A DNA stretch of 64,000 nt from a virus (IMGVR_UViG_2576861193_000004:42259-106258), one strand, 5' to 3'; positions 1,031-60,477 are shown, counted from the stretch's first letter. Translations and numbers: made by a program. The notes: generated by a model not told the origin, from the letters alone.

Positions 1031-1079
1031 CCTGTCAGCGCCACAATGATAGTAAATTAGTACTTACTTATCCAGATGC

Positions 1080-1415
1080 TTAAGCCTCAAATACTTGTCT
1101 GAATGTAGCAGTTAAGACACAGTACCCCTGATATCGCTTGACCGTATGACTGTCACATACAACTACAATCTGCTTGCCTCTTGGATTAACCCAATAGAAC
1201 GATTCAACACCTGATCGCTCAGTCAGGAAGTCATCGATTGCATTAATTTCGTTGTATGATCTGGTAAAGGTTAACGACCATTCTTCTTTAATACGATTAA
1301 GACCTTGAGCCTGTCGCTGCTCGTAGTCATCACCAAAATTAAGTACCGTTACATTCGGTTTTACGCTCTTTTCAGATTCGTAATCTGGATACCAATTAAA
1401 CGTTTGTCTTTCCAT
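1080..1415 (-). CDS. minor tail protein M-like
   Basis: 111 aa ORF directly downstream of tape measure gene and upstream of L-like gene; size and synteny of lambda gpM. Confidence 0.6.
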   Translation of the reverse strand: MERQTFNWYPDYESEKSVKPNVTVLNFGDDYEQRQAQGLNRIKEEWSLTFTRSYNEINAIDDFLTERSGVESFYWVNPRGKQIVVVCDSHTVKRYQGYCVLTATFRQVFEA

Positions 1416-1457
1416 CTCACATCCTTGTGAGACTGCCCCGGTCGGGGCAGTCGATAG

Positions 1458-4400
1458 TTAGTTACGTTGAGTGTTTGGGTTGAGTGATCCGCCAGGGCGT
1501 TTCTCTTGAGCGATAGTCTCAAGCGCGATTGCTTTCATCCGTTGAGCGGCATTGTTCCATATGCTTTCTGTATCGCCGGATTCTGTCGTGCTACCGTCAC
1601 TATGGACGTTGATCTCAATTGATACAGGAGAAAGAACATTTCCGCCTCCACTCATACCATCGGTACTGAGCGTTACAGGGATTGTTCGGCCATCAGGCAA
1701 TGGAACATACGCCTCATTCATAGAACCTTCCCCAAACAACGCTAATTGAGGCGAGTTAGCAATACCGCCTTTCTGGTATGCCCGGAGCGGGATCACGCCG
1801 TCTTTTCCGAATATTCCTCCATTTGCAAACTTCGGGATTGCAGGAATGCCTTTAGTTCCGTCAGCCACACTGCTGGTTGCGGTTTTAGCAGAGCTTGATG
1901 TCACGCTGTCGAAACCACCGCCAGCCCAAGCTGAAACAAGACCAGATGCAACCGTTGCTCCAAAACTCAACCACTTATTACCAGAGCCGGAAGCATTAGC
2001 TCCAAGCATTGCAAACGCGGCAGACAGCGCGCCGGTAACAGAGCTTAGGTTCTGCATCGAGAAGATGGAGTCCTTCACTGCTTTTGTCTCAGCATCTTTG
2101 GCTTCAGTGCTATCAAATAGCCCTGATACCCAGCTACCAATCGCATTTGTTGCTGTGCCAATTGCGCTGGTGGTCTGCTGTGTTGTTTGCCCCAATCCAG
2201 TTACCGAACTGGACGTCTCCTTCGTGGCTTCTCCTACTGACTTGTCGCCGTTAACAGTGTTACCCATTCGTACACCTTGATTGGCAACTGCGGAAGCAAC
2301 CCCGGTGAGCAAATTACCACTCTGTAAACTACCAGCTGCGGTGGTTCCCATCCCCAACATGTTCATTAGAGGCAGCGTGATCTGCGACTTCACGACCATA
2401 TTGGTGATATCTTTCAAAATGGACTGAGATAGGCTGGAGAAGCTCATCTTCCCGTTAATAACGAAATCAGTCAGGACATCAGTTAAGCCACTAAACAAAT
2501 CAGTCCAGGTGCTTTCGATCTGCTCTGCCAGGTTTTCGTATTCCAGTGCCAACTTCTGCGTCGCAGTCCCCGTCTCTTTAATAAGCGCGGTATTGCCAGC
2601 AGCAATCAGTTGATTGATTTTCTTTGTATAAAGCGCCACAACTTTAGGATCAGACGCCTTATCACGAAGTTCTATCAACGCTTTGAGATTGCGGTTGTAG
2701 GTGTCTTCGAAATCAGCAACTTTCTCTTCACGAGACGGCGTATAGCCAGCACTAATAATGGAATCCGACTCCGGTGCCCAGGTGGAGATCATTTGCTCAA
2801 CATTGCGGCGATTAAACATCTCGCGATATTCAGGTGTCGCATTTTTGAGGTCTTCAAGACGTTTTTTCGCCTTGTCGATCATCTCTTGAGTGATGAACTC
2901 GTTAGGAACCGCATTAGCCAAATCAGTCAGCGATTTCGTTGTATCGCGAAGAGACTGATCAAACGATACCGTAGCCTTAGAGCTTTCACCCATTTGCCCC
3001 ATAAGCTGATCGGCTTTGTCCAGAGCCTTCTGGTATCCGGCTGCCAGTTTCTGTTGCGCTGCCTGTTCCTTCTTGGCCGCACGCTGCGAGGCGTTAGCTG
3101 ATCGTTGGGCTGCTTTCTCGGCTGCTGCTGCATCCTGTTCACGAGCTTTAGTCAGTGCGGCAATGGCTGCGGCACGCTCTTCATCGCTCATTTTCTCCAG
3201 AGAGCTGGCACTGGATGCTTTCTGCAAATTAAGCTGCGTCTTGAGTTGTTTAGGCCCAATAATCGGCTTACCTTCGAAGTCCATCATCGGAGTGCCGTCA
3301 GGCAAAGTACGTTGATAAGTCGCAGAATCCATCTGGTTTCGCATATATTGCGCCAGCGCCTTCTGAGCTGCTTTATCAGTTGTACCTAACCCCAGAACAG
3401 TCCCCTGGTTTGACATTACGCCCTTACCAGTTTTGGCCGCGTTATCTCTCTCGAACTCTGCCTGAGTCAGTTCCTGAGCGACGACTTCCAAATTCTCCTG
3501 ATAACCACGAATACTGCCTTGCAGTTTCTTGATCTGCTCGGTGTTTCCTTCCTTTTTCGCTTTTTCAAGCTGATCATTAAGAGTGGCTATTTGCCCCTCG
3601 ACAGCATTCTTACGAGAAGAAAGTGAATCAACCAGTTTTTGCGCAGGCTCCAGATAGCTTTTGTTTACCGTTTCACGTAACGGTGCCAATAGTTTGTTCT
3701 TTTCGTCATCAGAAAGTGAATCGTCATCATTGATTTTTTGGATCTTCTCCAGAGCCTCTTGACGAGCTTTAGCGAATGTTGCCGCAAAGTCTCTATTCTC
3801 TTCCCGTATTTTCTCTATCTGTGATTCTGCCGCATCTTTTGCAAGACGTTTGGCTACAGCAATGTCTCCGCGTTCAATTGCCCCAGTAGTTTTATCGCGT
3901 TTCTTACGAAGGTCATTTAGCTCATTTTCTATACGCTTACGTTCATCCTGATTAATCTTTACTGTAGTTCCGGCCATACCCGGCCCATAAACCACCTTTT
4001 CGCCAGATTTTAACTCTTGTTCCTTTTGCGTGATTTGTTGCTCAAGACGCGCTTTATACTCCGCCATTTGTGCACGTTTGGCCGCTGTCATCGCTTCTGG
4101 TATTTTCCTAATCTCGTCAACGACCTTTGAAGTTTCGCTGCGGAGCATGGTCATGTACGTGATTAGGCCAGCAACAGCTACAGTGGCAACTGTAAATGCT
4201 GCCCCTATAGGGTTTGCTGCAATGAACGCCGTTAATCCAGCAAAAGCGCCTTTAAGCCCCGTAATCGCCCCACGGATGGCGAAAATAAGAGAGGGGATCG
4301 GAGCCAGCCCCATACGTGCCGCACGATTGAATCGAGTTACTGCTGTAGCGCCGAGGTTAAATGGAGTCTGTATGGCGGTCGCCATCGTGGCAAAGGTGCT

Positions 4401-6038
4401 AACCATCTGGCTGCCTGCGCCAACTACCCCCATGATCCCTGCTCGCATCAGTTTGAACGCAACCATCGCGGCCACGACCTTACCGAGATTAATTACCAGC
4501 TCTTGGTTCTTTGCTAACCATTGAGCAAGCTGACGCAACCCATCGATTGCCGTCGTTAACCCCGAACCTAAAGAATTGGCAAACGAAATCCCTTCGGCGC
4601 TATTCATGATTGAAGCCAGTTCTTTCATCCCCTTCGATAGAGAATCCAGATATCCGGCCTGACCAACCCGATCAGCAAATAACGTGAATGACGTCTGAAG
4701 TTGCGCCAGCGCACCTGTGTAGGTTTGCATCATGTCTTTCGCTGCGTTCTCATTCTCCGCACGCAGACCAACAAACATCAGAGACAACGCCTGTTTTGCC
4801 TCAACCGTACCGCTGGCAACGGCTTTAGTCAGTTCCCCCATAGTGATGCCTGCGGCGTCTGCCATTGCCTGCATCGCGTTAGGAACGGCTTCACCTAATT
4901 GCTGACGTAGCTCTTCCATTGACACAACGCCCTTACCGGACATCTGCTGAACGGCCACAGCCGCACGTTTCAACAGCTCACTATCACCACCAAAACGAGC
5001 AACGGAGTCCACCAGCGCCTTCAGAGAACCATCGGTTGGATCTAAGCCAGCAGAACGAAACTTCACGAAGGAGTCTGTTAACGCCTGCATCGCGAACGGC
5101 GCATTTTGAGCCATGTCTACGATGTACTTCATATCATCAGCGGCAGCCTGGCCCGGGTTGGACTTCTCCTTATTCAACCCTCGAAGCATCACCCGCATAC
5201 GTTCCATTTCGGCCGCAGCTTCAACAATAGGCTTCTGCCACCCAAACATGATGTCAGTAACCGTTCTGGCTGCATCTCCGATCTCGCCAAGCAGGAAAAT
5301 GTTGCCACGAAGGCCAGAGAACATACCTCCTTCGTTACTTTTACCGCTATGGCCAGAAGCGCCGCTACGCCGCCCGCTACCACCATCGCCACTTCCAGAT
5401 GTACGAACGCGTACCGGCTTGCTAATCAGTTGCTGACGTCCGATAACTTCGTCCATCTGCTCACGAACCTTTTTCAGTCCCTCGGCAGCCTGACTCGTTG
5501 TGACACCCCAATTACTGAGTCGCTTCGTCGTGGTATTAAGGCGCGTATTCATGCCACTCACGGACGCAGAGGCTTCTTTGACCTCCGTACCAAAGCGGCT
5601 TGCGCTTTTGCTTGCATAGGTCGCCCAATCAGAGAAATCATTTAGCTCTGATTGCACTTTACGTAATGACGCGGTGAGTTTATCTACTGAAGAAGTTGTC
5701 GTATCGACGCGCTCAATCAGGGCTTTAAGACCAGAATTGAGGCTGGTGATGTTGCCACGCATTTTACGCGTAGCATCTGAAGCAAGCTCAAAACCGGCAG
5801 CTACATCCTGTAGTTTATCTGCCGTAGAATCGAGCTTGCTTTCCAGAACGCCAATGATACGGGCGACCGAACCCAAAGAGCGTTCAAAGGTTTGGATTTT
5901 TTGAGCAGGCTTTGTTACCTGCTCACCAAATCGAGTAAGCAGTTTCCCCGCACGATCGATTGACGCTGTAAACTGTTTGTCTTCCAGCGACAGGATAAAC
6001 TCTACGTTTTGTGACATTCCCTTGTCATCCTCTGCCAA
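1458..6038 (-). CDS. tail tape measure protein
   Basis: 1526 aa, long alpha-helical/coiled-coil regions with Gly/Ala-rich hydrophobic segments, between chaperone and M/L/K genes. Confidence 0.85.
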   Translation of the reverse strand: MAEDDKGMSQNVEFILSLEDKQFTASIDRAGKLLTRFGEQVTKPAQKIQTFERSLGSVARIIGVLESKLDSTADKLQDVAAGFELASDATRKMRGNITSLNSGLKALIERVDTTTSSVDKLTASLRKVQSELNDFSDWATYASKSASRFGTEVKEASASVSGMNTRLNTTTKRLSNWGVTTSQAAEGLKKVREQMDEVIGRQQLISKPVRVRTSGSGDGGSGRRSGASGHSGKSNEGGMFSGLRGNIFLLGEIGDAARTVTDIMFGWQKPIVEAAAEMERMRVMLRGLNKEKSNPGQAAADDMKYIVDMAQNAPFAMQALTDSFVKFRSAGLDPTDGSLKALVDSVARFGGDSELLKRAAVAVQQMSGKGVVSMEELRQQLGEAVPNAMQAMADAAGITMGELTKAVASGTVEAKQALSLMFVGLRAENENAAKDMMQTYTGALAQLQTSFTLFADRVGQAGYLDSLSKGMKELASIMNSAEGISFANSLGSGLTTAIDGLRQLAQWLAKNQELVINLGKVVAAMVAFKLMRAGIMGVVGAGSQMVSTFATMATAIQTPFNLGATAVTRFNRAARMGLAPIPSLIFAIRGAITGLKGAFAGLTAFIAANPIGAAFTVATVAVAGLITYMTMLRSETSKVVDEIRKIPEAMTAAKRAQMAEYKARLEQQITQKEQELKSGEKVVYGPGMAGTTVKINQDERKRIENELNDLRKKRDKTTGAIERGDIAVAKRLAKDAAESQIEKIREENRDFAATFAKARQEALEKIQKINDDDSLSDDEKNKLLAPLRETVNKSYLEPAQKLVDSLSSRKNAVEGQIATLNDQLEKAKKEGNTEQIKKLQGSIRGYQENLEVVAQELTQAEFERDNAAKTGKGVMSNQGTVLGLGTTDKAAQKALAQYMRNQMDSATYQRTLPDGTPMMDFEGKPIIGPKQLKTQLNLQKASSASSLEKMSDEERAAAIAALTKAREQDAAAAEKAAQRSANASQRAAKKEQAAQQKLAAGYQKALDKADQLMGQMGESSKATVSFDQSLRDTTKSLTDLANAVPNEFITQEMIDKAKKRLEDLKNATPEYREMFNRRNVEQMISTWAPESDSIISAGYTPSREEKVADFEDTYNRNLKALIELRDKASDPKVVALYTKKINQLIAAGNTALIKETGTATQKLALEYENLAEQIESTWTDLFSGLTDVLTDFVINGKMSFSSLSQSILKDITNMVVKSQITLPLMNMLGMGTTAAGSLQSGNLLTGVASAVANQGVRMGNTVNGDKSVGEATKETSSSVTGLGQTTQQTTSAIGTATNAIGSWVSGLFDSTEAKDAETKAVKDSIFSMQNLSSVTGALSAAFAMLGANASGSGNKWLSFGATVASGLVSAWAGGGFDSVTSSSAKTATSSVADGTKGIPAIPKFANGGIFGKDGVIPLRAYQKGGIANSPQLALFGEGSMNEAYVPLPDGRTIPVTLSTDGMSGGGNVLSPVSIEINVHSDGSTTESGDTESIWNNAAQRMKAIALETIAQEKRPGGSLNPNTQRN

Positions 6039-6294
6039 ATATTTGCATCAGTTGCTCTTTGGCGTCAGGGTCTGCCTTATCCTGGCTTGGATCGTAGACT
6101 TTATCTGTTACGACTGGTCTTCCAATCCTGAGTTGCAAACCCTCCATGAACGCCTTCACAGCCTCGCCATCCGCCTGGGACGCACGAGCGACTTGTAAGT
6201 TGCGGACATCCTCTTCCGCACGCAGACGGTCTATATTGCGACTGAGCATCCAGAACATCGTGAGAGGAACGTTCAGTAGCTCTAATGGCGACAC
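6025..6294 (-). CDS. probable frameshift extension of tail assembly chaperone (gpT-like part of G/GT)
   Basis: Alternate-frame ORF between gpG-like gene and tape measure start, overlapping tape measure start by 14 nt; lambda-like G-T synteny. Confidence 0.35.
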   Translation of the reverse strand: MSPLELLNVPLTMFWMLSRNIDRLRAEEDVRNLQVARASQADGEAVKAFMEGLQLRIGRPVVTDKVYDPSQDKADPDAKEQLMQIFGRG

Positions 6295-6374
6295 GGCGTA
6301 GTGAGCAACTACACGACTGAAATAGAATCCGAGATCTATTGAGACGGTCCTTGTCCCGGATTCATCGCGGGAAA

Positions 6375-6692
6375 TTACTTTGCCCCTTCGCCAGCCGCTT
6401 TTTCGTTTTCTTCATCAATCACTTCCATAGCGAAGGTGAAGATCTGCTGGAGTTGCGGAACAGTCAGTTTTTCAAGAACTTCGTCAGGTACTGAAGGGAT
6501 AACCTTACGAACCAGATCTGCATAAGCTGTCACTTGCTCAACAGGAGACATGTTCTTGAGATCTTTGCCTTCCATCTGCTTGATGGAAACAAAGAGGCCG
6601 ACGGTCATTTCAACGATGGGATATTCTTTGCCACCAAATTTGATGCTTTTTTTCGGCGGCAGAATGGAGTCGAGATCGAGTAATTTGGTCAT
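6375..6692 (-). CDS. tail assembly chaperone (gpG-like)
   Basis: 105 aa with acidic C-terminus, located between major tail and tape measure genes. Confidence 0.55.
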   Translation of the reverse strand: MTKLLDLDSILPPKKSIKFGGKEYPIVEMTVGLFVSIKQMEGKDLKNMSPVEQVTAYADLVRKVIPSVPDEVLEKLTVPQLQQIFTFAMEVIDEENEKAAGEGAK

Positions 6693-6753
6693 GGTTTAAA
6701 TCCTTTTAAACTCATACAGAGGCCCATCCATGGGCCTCTTGGGTTATCACAAT

Positions 6754-7500
6754 TTAGCTTGCGGCAGTTACAGAGACGGCTTTGGTCGCCTTCTTGGCAC
6801 CGTCATTAGTTGTGAAGGTGATATTGGCTGAACCGACAGCTTTACCAGTTACCAGTCCGTTCTGATCTACGGTCGCTTTATCAGTCGCATCAGAGCTCCA
6901 CACGCCAGTCTTATTGGTTGCATCGGCCGGGGTGAAGGTTGCGCTCAATTGAACTTTAGTGCCCACTTTTACGGTCGGTGAAGACGGGGTCAGCGTGACG
7001 CTCTCAACCGGCTTTGGGAGGCTCATTTTCCCCAACACGCCAGCGTCGTCCGGGTAAGCGGAAAACTCAACTGAGAACACGCGAACGTCGTCAGACTGGT
7101 AGGTCATGGTGAAGTTACCCGCGGTTGCTGCTTTAGGGATGGTCAGAACATAATCCGTCGCATCCTGCGGGGTCAGCACCAACTCTTTCGCAACGTCGAT
7201 CAGGTTCACTCCCTGCGCAGACGTGATGGTTACGGTATCTTCGCCAGAACTCAGCGTGGAACCTGGCATCAGATCGACCATGTTTTTCAACACGGATTCA
7301 GCCAGCGGCGCAGTAATGGTGATGTTGCGGCCCTGGATCAGCTCGGAGATCGTGGTCTGGCCCAGCTGGTCTACGGTCACTTTCAGCGTTTCGGTTGCGA
7401 TTTCAACCTGAACACCACCTTTGGTGTAACCCAAATCCACACCACCAAACGACACCTTACAGGCACCAAGTTTGATGTTTTTTACATGGGTATTAGACAT
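6754..7500 (-). CDS. major tail protein with C-terminal Ig-like (Big_2-type) domain
   Basis: Start taken at MSNTHVKNIK (ATG 7498-7500); C-terminal VTLTPSSPTVKVGTKVQLSATF..TNKTGVWSS..ATVDQNGLVTG..GSANITF is an Ig-like repeat pattern; synteny. Confidence 0.7.
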   Translation of the reverse strand: MSNTHVKNIKLGACKVSFGGVDLGYTKGGVQVEIATETLKVTVDQLGQTTISELIQGRNITITAPLAESVLKNMVDLMPGSTLSSGEDTVTITSAQGVNLIDVAKELVLTPQDATDYVLTIPKAATAGNFTMTYQSDDVRVFSVEFSAYPDDAGVLGKMSLPKPVESVTLTPSSPTVKVGTKVQLSATFTPADATNKTGVWSSDATDKATVDQNGLVTGKAVGSANITFTTNDGAKKATKAVSVTAAS

Positions 7501-7546
7501 TGATGGAAAACTCCTTTTTCCGTTAATTCTACGCATTCATTGCGCT

Positions 7547-7570
7547 AATAGTAAGTATATACTTACCAAT
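7547..7570. promoter_or_regulatory. motif-2 palindrome (ATAGGTAA-n-TTACCTAT family)
   Basis: aatagtaagtatatacttaccaat upstream of major tail gene. Confidence 0.45.
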
Positions 7571-7574
7571 TGAG

Positions 7575-7931
7575 TTAATTCAATAAATAGCCAGCAAATT
7601 CAACAGGAATGCCTGCTTCTATTAATGCCCCATCATTTTTGGGATAAATGATTGGCATCGCCATCGGTCGTACAAGTCGAAAATACACACCACCAGATTC
7701 CGTTTCCTCTACTGGAAACATCTCAATGATTTTATTGGCTTTCTCAACCGTCGTAGTAATTGACGAACCACGCACAATGATTGTGAATGATTCGTGATAA
7801 AAGCCCTGTAGCTCATGATCGATGCTGATGCCGGTATTTGGATTAATAAGCAGGACGCCAGATTTCACATTGGCAGGCAAGTAGTGACAGAAAATGTCAG
7901 TCCCGACCGTGCCAATCTTTGCCTTCTGCAT
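7575..7931 (-). CDS. hypothetical tail/head-tail joining protein
   Basis: ORF in structural module; start set at internal ATG (MQKAKIG) just after stop of upstream gene at 7960. Confidence 0.35.
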   Translation of the reverse strand: MQKAKIGTVGTDIFCHYLPANVKSGVLLINPNTGISIDHELQGFYHESFTIIVRGSSITTTVEKANKIIEMFPVEETESGGVYFRLVRPMAMPIIYPKNDGALIEAGIPVEFAGYLLN

Positions 7932-7959
7932 CAAACTTGCAAACGCTTCAATAAACACA

Positions 7960-8433
7960 TTAACCTCTCGTAAATCCGGCTTTTCTGGCAGCCTCAAGAA
8001 TCGCTTCTGAGAACTGCTTCTCGCTAATTTCCACCGCTCTTTCCAGAAAGTGTGGCCCAACACGGGGTTTAACACCGGCAATTGGTGGGTTTGTCACGTT
8101 CTTCATTCGAGAAAGATAACCGAGTCGGTATTTACCCAGCTCCATGTACTTAGCATAGTCACCTACTTCTACACCCGGATGCCCCTGACGTGGTTTTGCT
8201 CCAGACACAGAAAGCTCAATGCGCAGCCCTGAATAACCTTCTTTAATCACCCTGGCAAAGATAGCTGTCTCCAGAGATCCGGTTTCCAGCGGGGCCATTG
8301 CACGGCTGAGGCGCTCAACCAAACGCGCCAGCTTTTCCATGTCCCGAATAAGATATCGCTTAAATGCTTTCTGGCTGTTATTGAGTCTATTCCCCGCACG
8401 TTTGAACTGATGCGCATCGTATTTCAGACCCAT
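7960..8433 (-). CDS. hypothetical head-tail connector / tail completion protein
   Basis: 157 aa ORF in head-tail module; position only. Confidence 0.4.
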   Translation of the reverse strand: MGLKYDAHQFKRAGNRLNNSQKAFKRYLIRDMEKLARLVERLSRAMAPLETGSLETAIFARVIKEGYSGLRIELSVSGAKPRQGHPGVEVGDYAKYMELGKYRLGYLSRMKNVTNPPIAGVKPRVGPHFLERAVEISEKQFSEAILEAARKAGFTRG

Positions 8434-8768
8434 ATATTCGCCCCTACTTCAAGATGCCCAGGTCTTCCTCGTAGCCCCCAGCGGCGATGAACACTGGACA
8501 CCTTTAATTTTTGACCTTCAAGGATCAGTACATCATCAAGTTGTACAGCCGCTTCTAAAGGGACAACTAACACAGCATCAAACAGCTCCAGACTCGCCTT
8601 ACCACGACTACCAGAGCTATCAGCACGAACTGACGATTTCTCATTACTCTGTTCGAACTTAACCACGCCGACATTCGTCTTCCTGACGAATTGTAATTGC
8701 GCCTCACCGTAAACGTTCTTTGCGCCAAAGCGGTAGATCGCAATTTCTGTTTGCCATGAAATATTCAT
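8424..8768 (-). CDS. hypothetical head-tail joining protein
   Basis: Start taken at MNISWQTEIAIY; roughly 115 aa, typical size and position for a head closure/adaptor protein. Confidence 0.35.
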   Translation of the reverse strand: MNISWQTEIAIYRFGAKNVYGEAQLQFVRKTNVGVVKFEQSNEKSSVRADSSGSRGKASLELFDAVLVVPLEAAVQLDDVLILEGQKLKVSSVHRRWGLRGRPGHLEVGANIWV

Positions 8769-8847
8769 GCTCTCTCCCTGTTGTTGTCGGTCGCTCTCAT
8801 TACTGGCCAAAAACCCTTTAGACCAAAAGTAAATAATGCGACTGGCG

Positions 8848-9681
8848 TTACGCACGGCGAACAATCATACGGTTGTTGATGTAACTGACCAGCAAGCGCC
8901 AGGTGCTACGAGCCACATGCACGTTTGCAGCTTTACCGGTACGGTACATGTTGGTTGTTTCACCGATGGACTCTGACAAAATGCCATCCTCTCGTGCTGC
9001 GGCTACATCATTGCCATTTGCGATCTCACACGCTTCGTTGACAACGGCAAGCATCAACGCTTCTTTGAAGTAGTCAGGGAACTCTTCAAACTTCTCCTGC
9101 GTCATCTTTTCCCAATCGACTAAATCATGCCGGTACGCTCCATCTGCTCCCCACGGAATATCATACACATTCAGCATATTTTGAGGGCGATCGTATCGGT
9201 CAAAGTCGATACGTAGAATTTTGCGGATTGAGAACGGTAAAGTTTTAATTCGTCTGGTAGCCTCAATGAGACGCTTGCGCATTAAGCCTTCACCATCCGA
9301 CAGCAAAGTGTCCCCATTCAGCATATCGATCGCCTGCATTTGAGCATCAGCGACAGTTGCAAACGACTGTTCTGGTATCGACAGTTCAAAACTATTCAGC
9401 AGAACATACATTTGCCGCTCTTCATGCGTCAGACCCGATGCAACAGCCTTCACAATGACGTACCGCAGATCTCGCTCTTTCTCAGAGAGCTGGTTATATT
9501 CAGCCGACACGACAACCGGAATCGACATTTGACCGTTGGTAATTTCTAGCGGCTCGCCATCAACGAGAATAGCCCCGGTGCTGTCCTTTACTGTGTAGGT
9601 GGCAGATTCGATATCCAGCACGTTGAAGGCAAATGAAAGAGAAACAGCTTCACCGCTACGATACGAGTCGATCTGCGCCAT
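8848..9681 (-). CDS. hypothetical structural protein
   Basis: 277 aa ORF between capsid-side and tail-side genes. Confidence 0.35.
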   Translation of the reverse strand: MAQIDSYRSGEAVSLSFAFNVLDIESATYTVKDSTGAILVDGEPLEITNGQMSIPVVVSAEYNQLSEKERDLRYVIVKAVASGLTHEERQMYVLLNSFELSIPEQSFATVADAQMQAIDMLNGDTLLSDGEGLMRKRLIEATRRIKTLPFSIRKILRIDFDRYDRPQNMLNVYDIPWGADGAYRHDLVDWEKMTQEKFEEFPDYFKEALMLAVVNEACEIANGNDVAAAREDGILSESIGETTNMYRTGKAANVHVARSTWRLLVSYINNRMIVRRA

Positions 9682-10115: not shown

Positions 10116-10159
10116 AACGCTTTCTCTCCACTTGGGCGGCGAAAGCCGCCCAATATCGG

Positions 10160-11080: not shown

Positions 11081-11153
11081 TTCTCGCTCCTACAAAAAGG
11101 GTGGGCGTATAGCCCACCCTTTAACATAGATAACTACTTATCTACTACACTGA

Positions 11154-12029: not shown

Positions 12030-12054
12030 CTATCAATTCCCTTTGATTTAGATG

Positions 12055-12942: not shown

Positions 12943-12963
12943 AAAAATTCCTTTTGTTACTTA

Positions 12964-14538
12964 TCACTCGTTCTCTTGAGTAGATGAGTCCCCATTCCCT
13001 CGGGGTTGATCTTGCCCGCTTTCTTGGGCCGCACCACGATCATAAGTAAGTACTGACTTATTTTCAAGGGTATTTAGATCATTTTTTGGAGGAAAATTCA
13101 AGAGATCTTTATCAAATTCCTTTTTCATCGCCTCAGTAATGTTCGGGAAAATCTTCTCAATAAGCATTTCCATCTGGTGACGACGTACAGAGTCCGGTGC
13201 CTGAAGTAATGACAGTTTCTCGGCAACAGAAAATTCATCAGTAAGGCCACGAATATCGAAACTTTCTGGATACGCAATTAAAGAGTGGTCTTCGTCCAGA
13301 TCTACCCCCATCCATTTCGCAACCAGTAGCATGATTTGGCGTTCAGCCCTTTCCAGACGCTCTGCTTTTGTGACAAGCAAGCTATTTACACGCTGGAAGT
13401 CATACATTTTTGCGGCACCAGATGAATTATCGATTCCCTGTGCGTTGTCCTGCTTCGTTCGCTCACCAGCTACACCAACTGAATGGTAGATTTCGTTAAT
13501 CACCGTCTTAATCGTAGTGATGATCATCTGAGCTTGTTTCGGGTCTGGTGACAGATAAAACGGCTGGTTTCCACCTTCAGAATCGTAGGTGAAGACTCGC
13601 TTTGTGCCCATTTCAAGCACTTTAGTGTGGTTTTCATCACCAGGTAAAAGCGACTGTACCGGTATAGCCAACTGGCTAAATGTCTGATCCTGAATAATGG
13701 CATCAAGGTTTGACAGATAGTTTGCAACCGCACGATCAAGATAAGCAATATCATCGATCAACGATGGGCTGAAATACGGTGATTCACTTTCTCCAATACA
13801 ATCAACAGGAAACACAGGAACTACGCCGAGATTATGCGCGCCGCTGTCCTCTAAAATAACTTTTGCCTGACGACGACCTGCTCCACCAGCCCCCTTCTTC
13901 ACTTCCTCACGGAACAGATACCACTCGTTTTGTGTCCACAGACGATAACGTTGGTATTCCTGACCTGTAGAAGTAAAAGGATCTGCGTCATCGCGAGCGA
14001 CTTCCACAATTAACGCCCATAACATATTCCCGTCGTCGTCCCATGCCACATCCAGCATTTGCTGAGGTGAAATCCAGTAGGCGTAGGCGCGAGCATCTTT
14101 CTTTTTCTCGTCAGCTACTGACTCAACATCACCACTCATCGTGCTATCGACAACAACCCATATGCGACCGTAAATAGACGACTGCAAATCAATAGCGGCC
14201 ATAAATGAGTCAATAGAGGCATTCTGGCGAGTCGCACGTTTCCAGAAATTGCGGATCTGCTCTGGTGCCTCTTCGATATTTCTATGAATGTCTTCTTTAA
14301 AGAGATATTTGTTGATGAGGTTTACCACCTCACGAGTGTGGTTGAAGCGATAAGCACGCTCAACTCGCTCCTTAAACTCCTGATCTCCCTCTTTAAAGTA
14401 ACGAAAGATATTGTCTGTAAACCAACCACGCCCGCCAGCGTAAGTGCTGGCGAGGAAGTCCCAATGTTCTTTTTTCTTTTCGTATTCCGGGTGGCGTCGC
14501 GCCACCAGATCCTTAATTTGTTTGTCGTTCAATTCCAT
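12964..14538 (-). CDS. portal protein
   Basis: 524 aa ORF directly downstream of large terminase; size and synteny. Confidence 0.8.
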   Translation of the reverse strand: MELNDKQIKDLVARRHPEYEKKKEHWDFLASTYAGGRGWFTDNIFRYFKEGDQEFKERVERAYRFNHTREVVNLINKYLFKEDIHRNIEEAPEQIRNFWKRATRQNASIDSFMAAIDLQSSIYGRIWVVVDSTMSGDVESVADEKKKDARAYAYWISPQQMLDVAWDDDGNMLWALIVEVARDDADPFTSTGQEYQRYRLWTQNEWYLFREEVKKGAGGAGRRQAKVILEDSGAHNLGVVPVFPVDCIGESESPYFSPSLIDDIAYLDRAVANYLSNLDAIIQDQTFSQLAIPVQSLLPGDENHTKVLEMGTKRVFTYDSEGGNQPFYLSPDPKQAQMIITTIKTVINEIYHSVGVAGERTKQDNAQGIDNSSGAAKMYDFQRVNSLLVTKAERLERAERQIMLLVAKWMGVDLDEDHSLIAYPESFDIRGLTDEFSVAEKLSLLQAPDSVRRHQMEMLIEKIFPNITEAMKKEFDKDLLNFPPKNDLNTLENKSVLTYDRGAAQESGQDQPRGNGDSSTQENE

Positions 14539-14550
14539 TTGAATAACCTT

Positions 14551-14570
14551 AGATAATTACTTACCTATCT
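14551..14570. promoter_or_regulatory. motif-2 palindrome
   Basis: agataattacttacctatct between TerL and portal. Confidence 0.45.
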
Positions 14571-16508: not shown

Positions 16509-16518
16509 TGCATCTGCT

Positions 16519-18478: not shown

Positions 18479-19143
18479 GCAGCCATCTCCCCGGAAGAGA
18501 TCTTCTCCGCATATGCCACAAATGCGTCTACACCGCTTTCTCCCGTCATTTCTTCCATATGGGCAAGCAAATCACCAACAACAATGGCAGAGCCAGCAGG
18601 GAGCGTTTTAAAGCCCAATACGTCGACAACACGTACTTCTTCCGCTGCAACTTCATGACTGATCTCGGTGTGTTCATCCTTCTGTCGTTTAGTTTCTTCG
18701 CCAAGATCGATAACTAGCGAGTCGGTGTCCATTTCTTCTGTCATGCTGCCAACGAGAACATTCAACTCACGCTCTTCAAAGCCGAAAACCTCGATATCGT
18801 CCAGAACAAGCGACTCAAGCTCTTTCTGTAGCTTAATTGCATCGTAATCAATGCTGGCAAGTCGGTTATCTTCAAGACGCTTCGCACGAACCTCGTCATC
18901 ACTGAGATCATCGCGAACAATAACCGGTACGCGCTCAAGTCCAGCAAAAATTGCAGCCTCACGGCGGCCGTGGCCAGTAATAATTACGTCGTTCTTATCG
19001 ACCGTAATTGGCTGGTCAAATCCGCGCTTTTTAATGGCTGCGGCCAGATCTCGGATCTGCTGTTCATCATGCTTTTTGGCATTCATCTCATAGGGAATAA
19101 GATCTGCCGGGTCGCGATATACGATTTCAAACTTTTTGGTCAT
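18475..19143 (-). CDS. ParB/Srx-fold (ParB-like nuclease domain) protein
   Basis: Start set at ATG 19141-19143 (TAATG overlap with upstream stop); ParB-box-like IITGHGRREAA. Confidence 0.6.
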   Translation of the reverse strand: MTKKFEIVYRDPADLIPYEMNAKKHDEQQIRDLAAAIKKRGFDQPITVDKNDVIITGHGRREAAIFAGLERVPVIVRDDLSDDEVRAKRLEDNRLASIDYDAIKLQKELESLVLDDIEVFGFEERELNVLVGSMTEEMDTDSLVIDLGEETKRQKDEHTEISHEVAAEEVRVVDVLGFKTLPAGSAIVVGDLLAHMEEMTGESGVDAFVAYAEKISSGEMAA

Positions 19144-19841
19144 TACATACGCTCCTTGTAGTAGTCGACCAGCCACACCAGAGCCTCACCAGCGTTTTCC
19201 ATTTCATTGCCAGTATTAATTGCCTGGTCTTTGATGATGTTTTTTATGGTTTCTGCAACGCGATCTGACGCATCGAAAGTTACTTTGAAGCGCATGGTCT
19301 GATGTTCCGCACCGACACGTTCGGTTTTCTCTCGTTTGTCGGTATCGACAGGCTCATCACTACCACGAGACAACGCCTCCAGTGCTTCAAGGTCGATTGC
19401 CGCCTCTTTTGCTAAAACCATCGAGATTTCGTCGTCATACGGGGCGATTTCAGACAGTTGATAGTCAAGTTCTGACTGAATTTCTTCAATGAAGCGCTGC
19501 AATGCGATTTGGTCGTCTTCACCGTATCGCTCGTTGTCCACCAGTGACATCTGTTTAGCTACGACATCGCTAATTTTGCCCACAGAAAGCACCGGAACCG
19601 TTGAAATTCCTTGCTCAATAGCAGCACGCCAGCGATGTTCGCCGCCGAGGATTTCAAAAAATCCATCTTCAAGTTCACGAGCCAAAATTGGCTTAAAAAA
19701 GCCCAATTTTTCGATAGAACCTTTCAGTTTTTCAAAATTCTGCGCACCAACCGAATTGGTGTTCCAGGTATTCGGGCGAAGGTTGGCAACATCAACCTGC
19801 AAAATCGTGATTTTTACATCCATTTTATTGCTACAATCCAC
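19143..19841 (-). CDS. ParB/Srx-fold (ParB-like nuclease domain) protein
   Basis: 232 aa; ParB box II-like ILGGEHRWRAA; first gene of operon, motif-2 palindrome just upstream. Confidence 0.6.
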   Translation of the reverse strand: MDCSNKMDVKITILQVDVANLRPNTWNTNSVGAQNFEKLKGSIEKLGFFKPILARELEDGFFEILGGEHRWRAAIEQGISTVPVLSVGKISDVVAKQMSLVDNERYGEDDQIALQRFIEEIQSELDYQLSEIAPYDDEISMVLAKEAAIDLEALEALSRGSDEPVDTDKREKTERVGAEHQTMRFKVTFDASDRVAETIKNIIKDQAINTGNEMENAGEALVWLVDYYKERM

Positions 19842-19842
19842 T

Positions 19843-19866
19843 ATGTAATCACTTACTTATTATAAT
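19843..19866. promoter_or_regulatory. motif-2 palindrome
   Basis: atgtaatcacttacttattataat in divergent region between ParB-like operon and helicase. Confidence 0.45.
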
Positions 19867-21467: not shown

Positions 21468-21746
21468 ATGAGCGAAAAGAAAACAACTTATTGCCAAGTG
21501 GCATTGTCTGATAAGGCCAATGAAAAACTTGGAAAATTTCAAATAAAACTCAAAGAGAAAAAAATCAAGATGTCTAAGGCTGAAGTTATCAATGCCATTC
21601 TGGAGACGATGACTATGGCTGAATTTGACAAAGTCACATCTGCCGTTGGGGTTTCCGCTAAGACGCGTGAGAAAATCATGCGCATCTATGAGAACTCCAA
21701 TATGACAAAAAAAGATCTAGAGGAAATACTGAGCAGGTTGCCGTAA
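21468..21746 (+). CDS. hypothetical small protein
   Basis: 92 aa ORF starting 3 nt after helicase stop. Confidence 0.3.
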   Translation: MSEKKTTYCQVALSDKANEKLGKFQIKLKEKKIKMSKAEVINAILETMTMAEFDKVTSAVGVSAKTREKIMRIYENSNMTKKDLEEILSRLP

Positions 21747-27709: not shown

Positions 27710-27775
27710 TTCACTCTCCGTAGTGTCTTGGTTATTTTTATATTCTATGATCGTAAGTATGTACTTACAATACAA

Positions 27776-46514: not shown

Positions 46515-46656
46515 GTGGATTCCATTCAGTGTCAGAAAGAGTTGCGGCTGGCCAAGCCAGCCGCCTTTTGGCGTTCCATCCTGGAACCGTACCTAACCGG
46601 TACTTCGTCATCCTGACGATTTATAAGATACCTGATTTATTATAGTGGGTAAATAC

Positions 46657-47265
46657 TTACTTATCTTTTTGTGACAAAAACCCAATGTCATGCTTGTGAG
46701 GCATATCAGCTGCGGAATAGGCGGCGATCTTCGCCAGACGGTCACACATTTCGTTCTCGCGATGACCTGCATGGCCTTTAACCCACTTCCAGCGGACATT
46801 ATGACGACTGGCGGCCGCGTCGAGACGTTTCCAGAGATCCACGTTTTTGACTGGCTTCTTCTCAGACGTGATCCATCCGTTACGCTTCCAGCCTTTCATC
46901 CAGAGCGTCATGCCGTTTTTAAGATACTGGCTGTCGGAATGCAGGATCACGTTGCAGGGGTACTTCAGACGCTCCAGCGCAATCAGGGCGCCCATCATCT
47001 CCATCCGATTGTTGGTCGTGCTGTGAAAGCCCTCAGAAAGCTCGCGCTCTTCGCCTCGATACTGGAGAACGATGCCGTAACCGCCCGGCCCGCCCGGATT
47101 TTTGAGGCAAGAGCCATCACTGAATACTTTTACGGTTTTGAGCTGGGGATTGAACTCGACTACGGGGGTTTTGAAGTTGGTACGGGATTGCTGGTGGGTT
47201 TGGTATCTGGCTTTGGACTTCGTGCGGCAGCCAGTATGTTGCCGGGCTGGGGTCTTGGTCGTCAT
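46657..47265 (-). CDS. rnhA: ribonuclease HI
   Basis: Core [58 protein letters not shown] parallels E. coli RnhA; start set at MTTKT. Confidence 0.8.
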
Positions 47266-47843
47266 TTTGGCTCCAGAATCGCGCGCCGCGACGATTTTTT
47301 TTTCCCTCGCGCGTGTGCGCACGCGTGCGTGTAAATATTAAAAATTTTTTAGAAAAGAAAAATTACTTCCCAGAACAGGTTTTAATAAAACCTGAACTGA
47401 ACGAACGAAGTGAGTGAAGTTCACCTCGAACGAAGTGAGAGGTTGTCTTTTCAGGTAATACTCTCCCAGGGAGGTGAGTACAAAATTACCTCACCAACCT
47501 GGTCGTTTCATAACCTGAAAAGTTATGACCTAAGTCTACTGCCAGCTTAGGCTTGGGAAGTTATGGATGACAGCACCCCAGAACCGAGATCTTCCCACAC
47601 TTTATGAAGGGGAGTACTGGATTCAACCTCTCGAAACACTCCAGACTCGACAATCATAAAGTGACCCTTCTCTCTGCCCACTTTGGTTCCCCCTTCCCCA
47701 ACCCCTAAACGGTGCCGGTTCTACGCTGGTAGTGAGCTTTTTTAAACCTGACGCCAGTGACGCTATCCCCCACCCATCAGGTCGAGCTGCCAAAAGTATC
47801 CGGAAGCGGATAGATTGTATCACTGGTTAGTGGTGTTTTGAAT

Positions 47844-47858
47844 GGTAAGTACTTACAT
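47844..47858. promoter_or_regulatory. motif-2 palindrome
   Basis: ggtaagtacttacat (perfect GTAAGTACTTAC palindrome). Confidence 0.45.
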
Positions 47859-47859
47859 A

Positions 47860-48090
47860 TTATATTGATTGATTAATTTCTCGCCCATGAAGCTGGACGT
47901 TCAGGGCAAACACCTCATTGATGAGTTCCCCTAACAGCTGCTCCACCAGCTCTTTGTGCTCGCCTGAATGAAGACATTTGAGCGACCATTCGTAGAGACT
48001 GAAAGCCTTATCGCGATCTTTCATCATGTCGCGCACTGTGGCCAGAAAATCGCTCTCAACGAGCGCTACGACGTTCGTCGGGTATACCAT
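47860..48090 (-). CDS. hypothetical small protein
   Basis: 76 aa ORF; motif-2 palindrome near 47844-47858. Confidence 0.25.
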   Translation of the reverse strand: MVYPTNVVALVESDFLATVRDMMKDRDKAFSLYEWSLKCLHSGEHKELVEQLLGELINEVFALNVQLHGREINQSI

Positions 48091-48292
48091 GATAGTTTTC
48101 CTTACTGTGGTTCATAAAATCGATTCTAGAGCGTCTGGAGAGGGGCTCCAGTAGGTTCTGAAGGTGTAAAACGGTCTGGGAGTTGTTTGGAAATCACGTC
48201 TTAAAAAGCCTGCGTCTGTATATATTAATAATTAGTACTTAGTTATTTATATATACGGAAGCAGGTTCTCAAACTAACTCCCAGACTGGTGT

Positions 48293-48896: not shown

Positions 48897-48921
48897 TGAT
48901 AGGTAAATACTTACCTATTTT
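48897..48921. promoter_or_regulatory. motif-2 palindrome
   Basis: tgataggtaaatacttacctatttt: perfect ATAGGTAA-ATAC-TTACCTAT, 10 bp upstream of Dam-like gene. Confidence 0.5.
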
Positions 48922-53741: not shown

Positions 53742-53768
53742 GATAAGTAAGCACATACCTATTATTTT
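53742..53768. promoter_or_regulatory. motif-2 palindrome
   Basis: agataagtaagcacatacctattattt immediately upstream of thyA-like start. Confidence 0.45.
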
Positions 53769-53904
53769 ATACAAGTTTATCTGTCAGAAGTGTGTAAGGC
53801 TAGGAGGGGAGTAAAAAAAATGGTGGCTCTTCGGCCACCATTGCAATGAGCAATTAAGAACTTGGACAATAAAACACGCCAAGGCAATATATAATGATAA
53901 GTAC

Positions 53905-54783
53905 TCACTTACAATTATTTTTTACCATCTCGTAAAGAGATGAGGACTTCGCCTTCTCAACAAAGCAAGTCAGATCCACATCGCTGTAGGTGGGAGATTT
54001 GAGGATCTTGCCATCAGAAACCCTGAAACCGATCATCATGTCAGTCCCTTCAGCATGGCAGAAGCCCAGGTCTTCCTTGTCATATTTGCAATTCTCTACC
54101 GCCACACGACGCTCTTCGGCGTCAGCCGGCCACAGCTTGGTCATGTTGGAACGGTGGATTTCTGCCACCAGCTCAACAATATCGATTCCGAGAAAATCAG
54201 CCAGACGGTAGGTCATCATGCAGGCAACGTAGATTTTGTTCATCACGCGGCGCAGCTCCTGCACCAATTCGGAATCGCTTATCGGCTTCGCTTCAAGTTT
54301 GTCAGCCAACGCATTCAGCATTAATGCAGCTTCTTTTGCTTCTTCAAACGGGATAGCCATATCGTCAAAGACCGTGTTGCCCGGAACCATGATGGTGTGG
54401 ATGAAGCGATCAACACTCTGCTCTTGGGTGTAGTAACTCATGCCCGTCGAGATGCCGCCTTTGATGGCCACCATTGTGCCGACGCCCACGTAAAGGAAGT
54501 CAGCCATCGCGTCCAGCAGTGCCGTCATATCCCCATTTTTGGCTGCCGGGATGCCCTCGGTAACTGCTTCTTCGTGGATCAGCTTGGCACGCAGACGCAG
54601 TAATGCCGGATCTGGAATGGCACGGCGTGGGTGCTGAAACAGTGTGTGGAACTGGTCAACCATCAGGTAGATGCTTTCCGTTGTCTTGCCGAAACCGGGA
54701 TTCAACTCGTAAGGCTCTGGTTTAAACCCCACGAGTTTGTCTGCGGCAAGTTTCAGATGATCGGTCAGTTTCGTAAATTTCAT
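53905..54783 (-). CDS. hypothetical protein
   Basis: 292 aa ORF. Confidence 0.3.
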   Translation of the reverse strand: MKFTKLTDHLKLAADKLVGFKPEPYELNPGFGKTTESIYLMVDQFHTLFQHPRRAIPDPALLRLRAKLIHEEAVTEGIPAAKNGDMTALLDAMADFLYVGVGTMVAIKGGISTGMSYYTQEQSVDRFIHTIMVPGNTVFDDMAIPFEEAKEAALMLNALADKLEAKPISDSELVQELRRVMNKIYVACMMTYRLADFLGIDIVELVAEIHRSNMTKLWPADAEERRVAVENCKYDKEDLGFCHAEGTDMMIGFRVSDGKILKSPTYSDVDLTCFVEKAKSSSLYEMVKNNCK

Positions 54784-55048
54784 GTTTTCTTTCCTTTAGA
54801 CTTCTTTTGATACGCCAATTTTGACCCAGCAGCGCCAGGCCACAAAGTGGTTAAACTCGGCTTAGAGGTATTCGAACTGGCTCGGGCCAGTGCAATCGAC
54901 AGCGAACTTTGTCAGCGCTTCATGCAGCTGGCAGCGGCTCGGTGGGCGTTACGTTTTACGATACTTATTATGTGTAGCCCAATTAAAAAGACCACTATAT
55001 ATAGTGGCCTCATGGTAATAGATAAGCACTTACCTATCAATTATCAAC

Positions 55049-59019: not shown

Positions 59020-59248
59020 ATAACACCTCTGATATCGTGTGTTAACTTTTGACCATCTTTCAATCTGAACTCCGTATGCGCGGGGAAGGATCTGCGATTC
59101 AATAAGCCTTTTCTGGTTAGCCTTCCAAGATAAAACGCTACGGGATTTCCTCCTGAAGGGTATGGCTTGTGAAACATAACCGTCTGGCCTTTTTGAAGTT
59201 TTTTCATCACGATGGCAAACTCTCGAAAGCTCCCATAATAACGTTGCC

Positions 59249-60334
59249 TCACACAGCCTCCGCACTCTCTGCTTCGGTCAAGATCTCCTGACACAGTATG
59301 TCCAGCTTGCTCAGGTCGAAGCCACCGTCAGTGTCGTGAACGATCTTGCAGTACGCCGCAACGGACTCGCCCAGGCTGTCAATTTTGCTGGTTTCCGCAG
59401 TACTGGCAGCGCCTTCCATCATCGATGCCTTGCGAATGAAGTTGCAGACGACACCCTTCGCGCCCATTGTTTTCAGGACGTTCTGAAGTTTGATGCCTTC
59501 TTCATCGCTCTCAACAACGGCACGGAAGCGCACGTAGTTGCCGCGAATCTGATCGTCATCTACATCGTCCTCAAGGTTCACGAATTTAGGTGCCGAGGTT
59601 TCGTGGTGAGTGAATGAGCCGTCCGGTTTGACGATCATGAAGCCGGCCAGTGAACCAACATCCCCCCAATTCTGGTGTGTCAGCGCCCCGATACTTACCA
59701 CTCCAGGCAGCACTTCTTTGTGGTTGTGGTAGTGCCCGGACAACAATAAACGGAAGCCGATATCTTTCAGTTCCTGTGCGTCGATGCCGACATCGGGCAT
59801 GGTGGGGATCGCTTTGTTGATTGAGGTATGTACAACAACATCATGGTTGTCACCATCCAGCCCGGAACGCAGCGTTTTGAGATCGCTGATAAGTTCTGCG
59901 TGGTTATTACGCCAGCTAATCAGATGGACGGTTACGTCGCCCATTTTGATGGAATGAGGACGTTTGCCGCAGACGATTTCCACACCGATTGAGCGCAGAG
60001 AGGCTGCTGCATTGGCGCTGTATACGGAATTGTTGGTTTCGAGGTCGTGGTTGCCAGCCAGCATTACCACCTTGAGACCCAACTCTTTGATGATCCACTC
60101 GTAAGTTTCGGTCACGAAATGCAGAACGGAAGGTGATATAGCACCGCGAACATGGAAGGTATCACCAGCTACCAGCATGTGCTTACAGCCAGCAGCTTTC
60201 ATCGCTTTGGCCGCCTCCTTCGTAGCGTCCAGTTGGATCTCCAGCCGAGAGTTAAGCCCGTCAGCGTTTGTTGTCGCAAAAGCATCCCAACGATGATAAT
60301 GGGGATCTGATATTACCCCGTATGGCAATGTCAT
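59249..60334 (-). CDS. sbcD: SbcD/Mre11-like nuclease (calcineurin-like phosphoesterase)
   Basis: Motifs ISDPHYH, VAGDTFH, GNHD, GHYH. Confidence 0.75.
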   Translation of the reverse strand: MTLPYGVISDPHYHRWDAFATTNADGLNSRLEIQLDATKEAAKAMKAAGCKHMLVAGDTFHVRGAISPSVLHFVTETYEWIIKELGLKVVMLAGNHDLETNNSVYSANAAASLRSIGVEIVCGKRPHSIKMGDVTVHLISWRNNHAELISDLKTLRSGLDGDNHDVVVHTSINKAIPTMPDVGIDAQELKDIGFRLLLSGHYHNHKEVLPGVVSIGALTHQNWGDVGSLAGFMIVKPDGSFTHHETSAPKFVNLEDDVDDDQIRGNYVRFRAVVESDEEGIKLQNVLKTMGAKGVVCNFIRKASMMEGAASTAETSKIDSLGESVAAYCKIVHDTDGGFDLSKLDILCQEILTEAESAEAV

Positions 60335-60448
60335 GTGTCTTTTCCTTTGTGGTTATTTTGATACAAATTCTAAGCGTGCATAAGAGGCATACAACCCAGA
60401 CAACACGGCACACAAAAGAATATAAAGGCACATGATAATGACAAAAAA

Positions 60449-60477
60449 ATAAGTAAGTAAATACCTATCAGATAGGG
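60449..60477. promoter_or_regulatory. motif-2 palindrome
   Basis: aataagtaagtaaatacctatcagatagg upstream of SbcD-like gene. Confidence 0.45.

Follow-up and report, generated by a model that had tools for sequence, protein, structure and literature searches.

A degenerate 20-bp dyad recurs through a 64,000-nucleotide stretch of viral DNA (IMGVR_UViG_2576861193_000004:42259-106258, referred to as a whole as the window) and is tentatively interpreted here as a dispersed operator through which a repressor would silence the lytic regulon of a phage-plasmid. Sequence comparison places the window in an Escherichia coli phage-plasmid of the SSU5/pHCM2 type. Over window positions 46-56 kb the identity is 95% with Salmonella phage SSU5 and reaches 99.6% with E. 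coli plasmid CP099103, and this 10-kb part alone matched 762 PLSDB plasmids; positions 1-16.6 kb form the head-tail module, which is 97% identical to that of phage Cyrano of E. coli LF82. All lytic genes of the window lie on the - strand, and at about 20-46 kb, the central segment, there is a + strand operon with a UvsW-like helicase, small open reading frames (ORFs) and a homologue of FljA.

Phage-plasmids of the SSU5 type abound in Escherichia, Klebsiella, Salmonella, Yersinia and Enterobacter, and they carry resistance genes as well (PMC9600943). Nearly every lytic transcription unit is marked by the conserved site; this single site gives a map of the regulon, a bait for the master regulator and a handle with which to predict or engineer inducibility. 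Full-text literature searches returned no description of the motif in SSU5, pHCM2 or phage-plasmids. One regulator site repeated over the lytic genes of a phage-plasmid is an arrangement of a known kind (P1; mycobacteriophage L5); the present version differs in that its site is dyad-symmetric and serves early-type as well as late-type genes.

Motif definition and enrichment

Every position of the window was scored out of 20 as a possible centre of the dyad ATARGTAAGT|ACTTAYYTAT, using 200 dinucleotide-preserving shuffles as background. Twelve sites scored at least 16/20 (0.04 expected in the shuffles, shuffle maximum 1) and 16 scored at least 15/20 (0.49 expected). The window holds 14 copies (Table 1). 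Thirteen had been listed in an earlier, sequence-only reading of this DNA, and all of these carry the element; the fourteenth is at 11126-11145. The literal pattern ATAGGTAA/TTACCTAT is found exactly at three places only. The same reading had described perfect inverted repeats: 48899-48918 is the only site with both 8-nt arms, and it scores 19/20 as a 20-mer palindrome. Two variants at 7549-7568 and 27751-27770 have a centre longer by 4 bp (GTAAGTAT|ATACTTAC), and the copy at 53893-53912 is weak (15/20).

The distances from the centre to the best-supported start codon at the 14 sites are 21, 23, 28, 28, 52, 56, 59, 65 (or 32), 110, 125, 141, 178, 245 and 586 nt. The earlier placing of the copies 5-100 bp upstream of gene starts is correct for some, but the range is 21-586 nt, many touch the preceding gene's stop codon or overlap it, and the copy at 13042-13061 is inside the portal gene. 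Copies in tiny intra-operon gaps overlap stop codons, ribosome-binding sites (RBSs) or start codons, and this tight placement is a poor fit to a promoter-only role. Absence from the central segment, also proposed earlier, is borne out by the best other scores in 20-46 kb (14-15, inside restriction-modification genes), with the exception of the variant at 27751-27770.

Distribution and conservation in relatives

In SSU5, 22 sites score at least 16/20 (0.03 expected), and the good sites total about 26. Portal, capsid, tail, tail-fibre and holin genes are preceded or separated by them, and they also precede the genes for helicase/primase, ligase, the DNA polymerase region, SSB, SbcCD, NrdAB, ThyA and Dam; further sites precede a second methylase gene and the ParB-like operon. 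The exact pattern was present in 60 IMG/VR loci, 57 of which are clearly SSU5-like. Two of the other three, one unrelated (L016) and one a dam-like fragment (L067), have a single copy each, and the third (L038), about 20% similar, has three good copies.

Orthologous junctions were aligned for elements of E. coli, Salmonella and Klebsiella. No other non-coding stretch is as well conserved as the motif core (identity 0.9-1.0), and variability is greatest in the 15 bp that adjoin it on each side (flanks +11..+25 and -16..-12). In relatives with a portal identity of 69-81% the palindrome occupies the same junctions with the same outer arms and another centre, the distant forms being ATAGGTgGTT|AACtACCTAT or ATAGGTATnT|AAATACCTAT and the general form ATAGGTA-N6-TACCTAT. 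The portal-coding copy is kept across all groups compared.

Evidence for a double-stranded DNA site

Permutation of the right halves among the 26 SSU5 sites gave a mean of 181.5 Watson-Crick pairs, compared with 183 observed (p = 0.40), and no excess pairing appeared when G·U pairs were allowed (p = 0.74). Mismatches counted over three genomes were of the G·U type in 41 cases and of the A·C type in 37, with no strand bias. The group-specific centres (AGTACT, GTTAAC and TTTAAA) are themselves palindromic. The flanks are nearly symmetric, with A at -13 in 17/26 and T at +13 in 16/26 SSU5 sites, which rules out reading a direction from the motif alone. Rfam gave no matches in the window. Because the halves do not covary and the G·U-type mismatches have no strand bias, the element is taken to be a double-stranded DNA site for a dimeric protein; the pattern points to two independently constrained half-sites, the signature of a dimeric binding protein and not of a hairpin.

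Promoter-like sequences on the motif

Hexamer pairs resembling sigma-70 promoters overlap 9/14 window sites on the gene strand versus 1/14 on the other strand, and 11/26 versus 3/26 sites in SSU5. The overlapped sites make up only about 1% of the sequence, and such pairs are not enriched in the lytic regions overall. Together with the strict symmetry of the dyad, the lack of covariation within it, the conserved junctions and the restriction to SSU5-like elements, this gene-oriented overlap indirectly supports the earlier suggestion that the motif is the site of an element-encoded transcription factor.

The start of the -10 hexamer relative to the motif centre is -3, 0, +8, +11, +14/16, +22 or +32, and the palindrome most often coincides with the spacer. 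At 13051 the -35 is upstream and the -10 is formed from the last TAT of the palindrome (TTGAAA-17-TATGAT), an arrangement kept in every group although the sequence is coding. At 1061 and 55027 the -35 consists of TTG plus the first ATA of the palindrome and the -10 is at +11; at 27760 and 53902 TTGTAA lies within the upstream half and the -10 at +12 to +16; at 7558 and SSU5 58083 the -10 is at the centre; and at 47850 the -35 is at +9 and an extended -10 at +31. Variable register is typical of repressor operators such as those of LexA or P1 C1. A fixed-geometry activator would not be expected to tolerate such variety, and the sites therefore look operator-like.

A separate count of sigma-70-like pairs over window positions 1-20000 gave 10, compared with 21.8 ± 4.7 in shuffled sequence, or about half. 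The late-gene block appears to avoid spurious promoters.

Expression in a related lysogen

RNA-seq data for E. coli LF82 carrying Cyrano were taken from the supplement of PMC9928086. Genes downstream of motif sites are at background in this lysogen (about 5-12, median 9.8; PMC9928086). This includes genes behind near-consensus promoters that have the palindrome as spacer: CYRAN_4 (10.9) and CYRAN_5 (7.4) follow TTGAAA-17-TATGAT (13051), CYRAN_56 (5.0) follows TTGAAA-17-TATCAT (Cyrano 57455), and all three are at background (PMC9928086). The + strand operon is expressed (helicase 46, 92-amino-acid ORF 114, FljA-like gene 18), and so are repA, toxin-antitoxin genes, the UmuD-like gene and the stretch that follows the degenerate 47850-type site (117) (PMC9928086). 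In the lysogen-expressed central segment the 27751 variant is the only copy, and there are no good copies besides it.

In 6-h macrophage samples Cyrano transcripts step up just after some sites, those with better hexamers (CYRAN_55 to 56, 59 to 60 and 11 to 12), and dam, which follows a near-perfect palindrome, does not rise (PMC9928086). The Cyrano lysogen data are consistent with silencing through the motif and serve as support only.

Repressor operator or activator site

The dyad would be bound by a dimeric regulator encoded by the SSU5-type phage-plasmid. Its 14 window copies, about 26 per genome, are placed in core promoter regions and short gaps, and essentially no lytic transcription unit is left out, be it for packaging, head, tail, lysis, replication or nucleotide metabolism. 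In the reading that fits best, the regulator is a repressor that would be produced while the element is a plasmid-prophage. It would occupy the spacer, -35 or -10 of weak to strong sigma-70 promoters and might act as a roadblock in gaps with no recognizable promoter, so that a lytic regulon of about 75 kb would be kept silent. If the repressor were lost, all units would be freed together.

Several points weigh against a repressor. The Cyrano RNA-seq is gene-level, comes from a relative and covers uninduced samples only. Sites 47850 and 19850, which have degenerate halves, adjoin regions that are expressed in the lysogen, a position that would fit weak operators. AT-rich DNA yields hexamer matches easily, and the motif ends themselves supply TA..T. 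A -35 is missing from most sites, and taken together the -35 matches do not exceed background; if the sites are promoters, an activator would be the natural requirement. Searches with tblastn against the window and SSU5 found no homologue of P1 Lpa (best E 0.4), and tblastn gave none of P1 C1 either (best E 2.7). The only annotated 'repressor' in the window is the FljA homologue, with tandem Sm-like repeats. For a speculative candidate, a 92-amino-acid protein discussed below, a ribbon-helix-helix (RHH) fold had no support from Pfam or the PDB, and its low-confidence AlphaFold model has a predicted local distance difference test score (pLDDT) of 52.

The main rival, a serious one though somewhat less probable, is that the motif instead defines an activator-dependent promoter class with no -35, in which a phage activator on the spacer palindrome would allow host sigma-70 RNA polymerase to use an adjacent TAnnnT as the -10, as Lpa does at P1 late promoters (-22 box plus -10). 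Transcripts would start about 20 nt downstream of the centre, the position implied by the -10-like hexamer. TAnnnT is present at +8 in 16/26 SSU5 sites, with no other offset exceeding 2/26, but it is mirrored on the other strand in 15/26 and may be only part of the palindrome. Besides the missing -35, such a class would account for the order terminator-motif-gene at operon starts that have no other visible promoter (27760; SSU5 39096, 55704 and 93174), for covariation-conserved hairpins that begin at +17..+22, where the 5' end would fall, and for the macrophage step-ups; some genes that start at +21..+28 with no Shine-Dalgarno sequence would fit near-leaderless mRNAs. The centre AAGT|ACTT also resembles the P1 -22 box AAGTnACTT, in a similar geometry (box, 4 bp, -10). 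This P1-like centre is not kept in distant relatives, whereas the outer arms are, and no Lpa homologue was found in the window or SSU5.

Other observations tell against both an activator-dependent class and the distinctive middle/late promoter class that the sequence-only reading had offered. Copies precede replication and nucleotide-metabolism genes besides virion and lysis genes, so that early-type genes are included and a late class is not described. The hexamers overlap the motif in many registers. A start about 20 nt past the centre would remove the RBS from transcripts at copies lying +12 to +28 from the start codon, including some with a good Shine-Dalgarno sequence (SSU5 57755 and 2040). 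Against an activator in particular, strong terminators follow at once after two copies (11135 and 55027), and dam behind a perfect site is flat where weaker sites with better hexamers rise.

Candidate binding proteins

The speculative candidate for a repressor is the 92-amino-acid product of 21468-21746; among the conserved genes of the + strand operon that the lysogen expresses, this one has the highest level in the Cyrano RNA-seq (PMC9928086). A homologue search with it returned close homologues only. The other ORFs of this operon and ORF 16650-16916 had no PDB relatives, and the Lpa family phrog_1704 was unmatched by the 20 window and SSU5 ORFs scanned against PHROGs. A more specific proposal, that one symmetric operator is used about 26-30 times by this small, non-canonical repressor, which would silence the early and late lytic regulon directly with no separate late activator, is considered distinctly unlikely as a whole. 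If true, it would mean that enterobacterial phage-plasmids have a global switch of the 'stoperator' kind, unlike the schemes of P1 (C1 plus Lpa) and lambda/N15.

The sites might also serve as parS/OB-like loading sites for the ParB-family proteins of 19143-19823 and 18475-19176, acting as a KorB-like global regulator or as a DNA organizer for packaging or replication in lytic growth; this is improbable. Two ParB_N proteins are encoded, and the first (ParB_N E = 3e-13) aligns with Spo0J (1vz0) over residues 7-154, through the helix-turn-helix (HTH) region. A motif copy (19841-19860) stands directly upstream of their operon, 28 nt before the ATG of 19143-19823. RK2 KorB has 12 OB sites, and the sites here are likewise dyad-symmetric and dispersed at promoters. 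Against this, the ParB-like operon is at floor expression in the lysogen and so cannot supply the silencer (CYRAN_119 and CYRAN_120 at or near the floor in LF82, CYRAN_119 4.99; PMC9928086), the site measures 20 bp compared with 13-16 bp for known parS/OB sites and has no sequence likeness to them, and the plasmid ParA partition gene is located elsewhere.

As a separate observation, the ParB-like genes belong to a cassette at 16650-19823 (-), directly upstream of terS, that encodes two ParB_N proteins, two ABC-type ATPases and an 88-amino-acid protein and is silent in the lysogen. One of the ATPases is fused to a domain that carries an acetyltransferase annotation in relatives.

The FljA homologue (23624-24148, +) is full-length (Salmonella phase-1 flagellin repressor, PF03614, E = 9e-81), with two tandem Sm/Hfq-like repeats; it is conserved across the family, expressed in the lysogen and intact in SSU5, so that this lytic isolate offers no hint. 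Since it consists of tandem Sm-like repeats and lacks an HTH, it is unlikely to be a DNA binder. A role in binding RNA is more likely, or one as a moron directed at host flagellin, whose translation it might repress; the E. coli fliC leader has only a vague ATAGGAT likeness.

An RNA hairpin in polycistronic mRNAs, acting as a processing site, stabilizer or translational operator and perhaps bound by this Sm-type protein, is a very improbable identity for the motif. In its favour, 8/26 SSU5 sites are 21-28 nt before a start codon and directly abut the RBS, and the phage-plasmid encodes a FljA homologue that is expressed in the lysogen, FljA proteins being known to prevent translation of fliC mRNA (PMC2652032). 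The reading was rejected on the covariation and mismatch tests and the lack of Rfam matches given above: the arms do not covary, and A·C mismatches on the sense strand are as common as G·U. In addition, palindromic group-specific centres are needless for a loop, the distances to start codons span 12 to >700 nt, and the stem is weak and A/U-rich.

Three further candidates for the regulator were discarded. SSU5_054/055, considered as immunity genes, are HicAB in the Cyrano annotation and have their own, different palindromes; the Cyrano 'putative repressor' CYRAN_45 is in an integrase island and not in SSU5; and the Rha/Ant gene is absent from the window, with TciA/TerB-like genes in its place.

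A chance or generic AT-rich intergenic or RBS context, the refutation envisaged in the earlier reading, or a conserved 'linker' serving only recombination between gene modules, has practically negligible probability, since, although the sites are AT-rich and intergenic and some mosaic junctions adjoin them (e.g. upstream of 55027 and 1061), they are in about 300-fold excess over shuffles at ≥16/20, a specific 20-bp dyad is kept at orthologous junctions where neighbouring RBSs vary and one copy inside a coding region is retained in all groups.

Comparison with known systems

The C1 operators of P1 are similar in that one regulator site is repeated over a phage-plasmid of about 100 kb and overlaps, in registers that vary, the sigma-70 promoters of lytic genes, those for DNA metabolism among them. 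They differ in being 17-bp and asymmetric (ATTGCTCTAATAAATTT type), and in P1 late genes are left to Lpa, whereas here a 20-bp dyad also precedes virion and lysis genes. The Lpa late promoters of P1, also from a phage-plasmid, have an inverted repeat in the spacer next to TAnnnT, usually with no -35, an arrangement that the motif resembles, and the centres are somewhat alike (AAGT|ACTT in the SSU5 group, with no middle base, versus AAGTnACTT in P1; in relatives GTTAAC or TTTAAA takes this place). In P1 the box measures 9 bp, a distinct -10 hexamer stands 4 bp further downstream, and only late genes are served; the motif described here is a 20-bp dyad in which the outer arms are conserved instead of the P1-like centre, and it is also found before dam, thyA, mazG-like, sbcD, SSB, helicase, ligase and nrdA genes.

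For mycobacteriophage L5, Brown et al. are said to have described, in EMBO J in 1997, 'stoperators': about 25-30 sites for the gp71 repressor in short intergenic gaps, often touching stop or start codons. L5 stoperators are thought to silence the prophage globally; they are 13-bp, asymmetric, orientation-dependent and mostly away from promoters. The present motif is like them in its at least 20 copies in short lytic gaps (14 in the window, about 26 in SSU5), touching stop or start codons, with none in the lysogen-expressed central segment other than the 27751 variant. It is unlike them in that site and flanks are symmetric and lie mostly on promoter-like hexamers; the hosts and phages are unrelated. 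The KorB OB sites of RK2 and the sites of ParB-parS systems are also palindromes dispersed at many plasmid promoters, including that of the ParB-family gene's own operon, but there is no sequence likeness and the ParB-like genes here are silent in the maintenance state.

Individual copies and their surroundings

Table 1. Motif copies and candidate binding proteins in the window. Scores are out of 20; start-codon positions are relative to the motif centre.
Feature	Position	Strand	Context
Copy, 17/20	1052..1071	-	- strand ATAAGTAAGTACTAATTTAC; upstream of L-like minor tail gene; sigma-70-like TGGATA-17-TATCAT on gene strand, then hairpin with CAGGATG loop
Variant copy, centre 4 bp longer (TGGTAAGTAT|ATACTTACTA)	7549..7568	-	Upstream of Ig-domain major tail gene; conserved TTGAAT-18-TATACT, its -10 at palindrome centre
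Copy, 16/20	11126..11145	-	Between ORF 11154-12029 and ORF 10160-11080; missed by the sequence-only reading
Copy, 19/20	13042..13061	-	Inside 3' end of portal gene
Copy, 17/20	14549..14568	-	Fills 26-bp gap from terminase large subunit stop to portal start (ATG at +21)
Copy, 16/20	19841..19860	-	Divergent region between ParB-like operon (-, ATG at +28) and helicase/FljA-like operon (+)
Variant copy, longer centre	27751..27770	-	Terminator before it
Copy, 17/20	46645..46664	-	Overlaps RNase H stop
Copy, 17/20	47841..47860	-	Overlaps stop of ORF 47860-48090 and -35 of conserved extended -10 promoter (47842-47814)
Copy, 19/20, most perfect in window	48899..48918	-	Dam-like methylase ATG at +23
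Copy, 18/20	53743..53762	-	Thymidylate synthase start (TTG) at +28
Weak copy, 15/20	53893..53912	-	Overlaps MazG-like gene stop
Copy, 18/20	55018..55037	-	TTGATA-17-TACCAT on gene strand
Copy, 18/20	60449..60468	-	Upstream of SbcD-like gene (ATG at +125)
Candidate binding protein (speculative)	21468..21746	+	92 amino acids, conserved in family; RHH-like by eye
Candidate binding protein (rival)	19143..19823	-	ParB-family, N-terminal domain and HTH region; own operon preceded by motif copy

The copy at 11126-11145 is followed directly by an intrinsic terminator hairpin (11090-11122). ORF 11154-12029 encodes 291 amino acids, and major capsid protein is the annotation of its orthologues in SSU5 and Cyrano; ORF 10160-11080 encodes 306 amino acids and is an Ig-domain structural protein in both annotations. 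The copy at 13042-13061 forms the spacer of its near-consensus TTGAAA-17-TATGAT, a promoter kept in all relatives. At 19841-19860 the half nearer a + strand TATAAT matches perfectly, and at 27751-27770 TTGTAA in the upstream half is the -35 of a conserved TTGTAA-17-TAGAAT. TATAAT follows the copy at 46645-46664 and precedes a 140-nt leader with hairpins conserved by covariation. The site at 53893-53912 has TTGTAA-17-TATATT on the gene strand and a terminator at about +60, and a terminator-like hairpin (55011-54988) comes directly after the copy at 55018-55037.

The portal-internal stretch (window 12964-13070) is translated as a conserved peptide, L-E/D-N-K/R-x-V-x-T-Y-D, and TTGAnA-17-TATGAT is also retained as DNA there where relatives share no more than 69% identity; constraint seems to act on this stretch as DNA and as protein alike.

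The same loop, CAGGATG, recurs in leader hairpins after two motif copies (window 1020-1042, 46571-46589 and 46603-46621, - strand). The stems differ among relatives (GGCGCTga..ttAGCGCC versus CAACGTCa..tGACGTTG), which is true covariation, and this suggests an RNA element that presents AGGAUG.

The conserved extended -10 promoter TTCAAA-17-TGaTACAAT (47842-47814) opens a stretch of about 550 nt with no annotated gene (window 47266-47842, -). Its Cyrano equivalent, CYRAN_81, is 12-fold above background in the lysogen, and the stretch may encode a small protein or a regulatory RNA.

Paralogous copies at SSU5 38187 and 84187 and at Cyrano 34739 and 84629 are followed by the same box, TGTAAGAAT, at +15..+23. 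The box is extended -10-like, and the gene behind one such copy, CYRAN_34, is expressed in the lysogen.

Other features of the window

Window positions 31598-42837 carry cargo that is not in SSU5: host-like metG and apbC, a UmuD-like gene, a homologue of DNA polymerase III theta and a complete type I restriction-modification system.

A second palindrome of about 55 bp, GCCTGCTTCCGTATATAT..AATAAGTTACTTATT..ATATATACAGAAGCAGG, is found at window 16575-16635 and 48222-48276, and also at about 33482 and 78328 in SSU5, about 26618 in a further locus (L008) and about 31184 and 78104 in Cyrano. At its centre it is similar to the half-sites of the motif, ATAAGT/ACTTAT. The ends of the deposited SSU5 and Cyrano sequences map to one copy's location, just upstream of terS, and the palindrome could be a cos/pac site or an origin.

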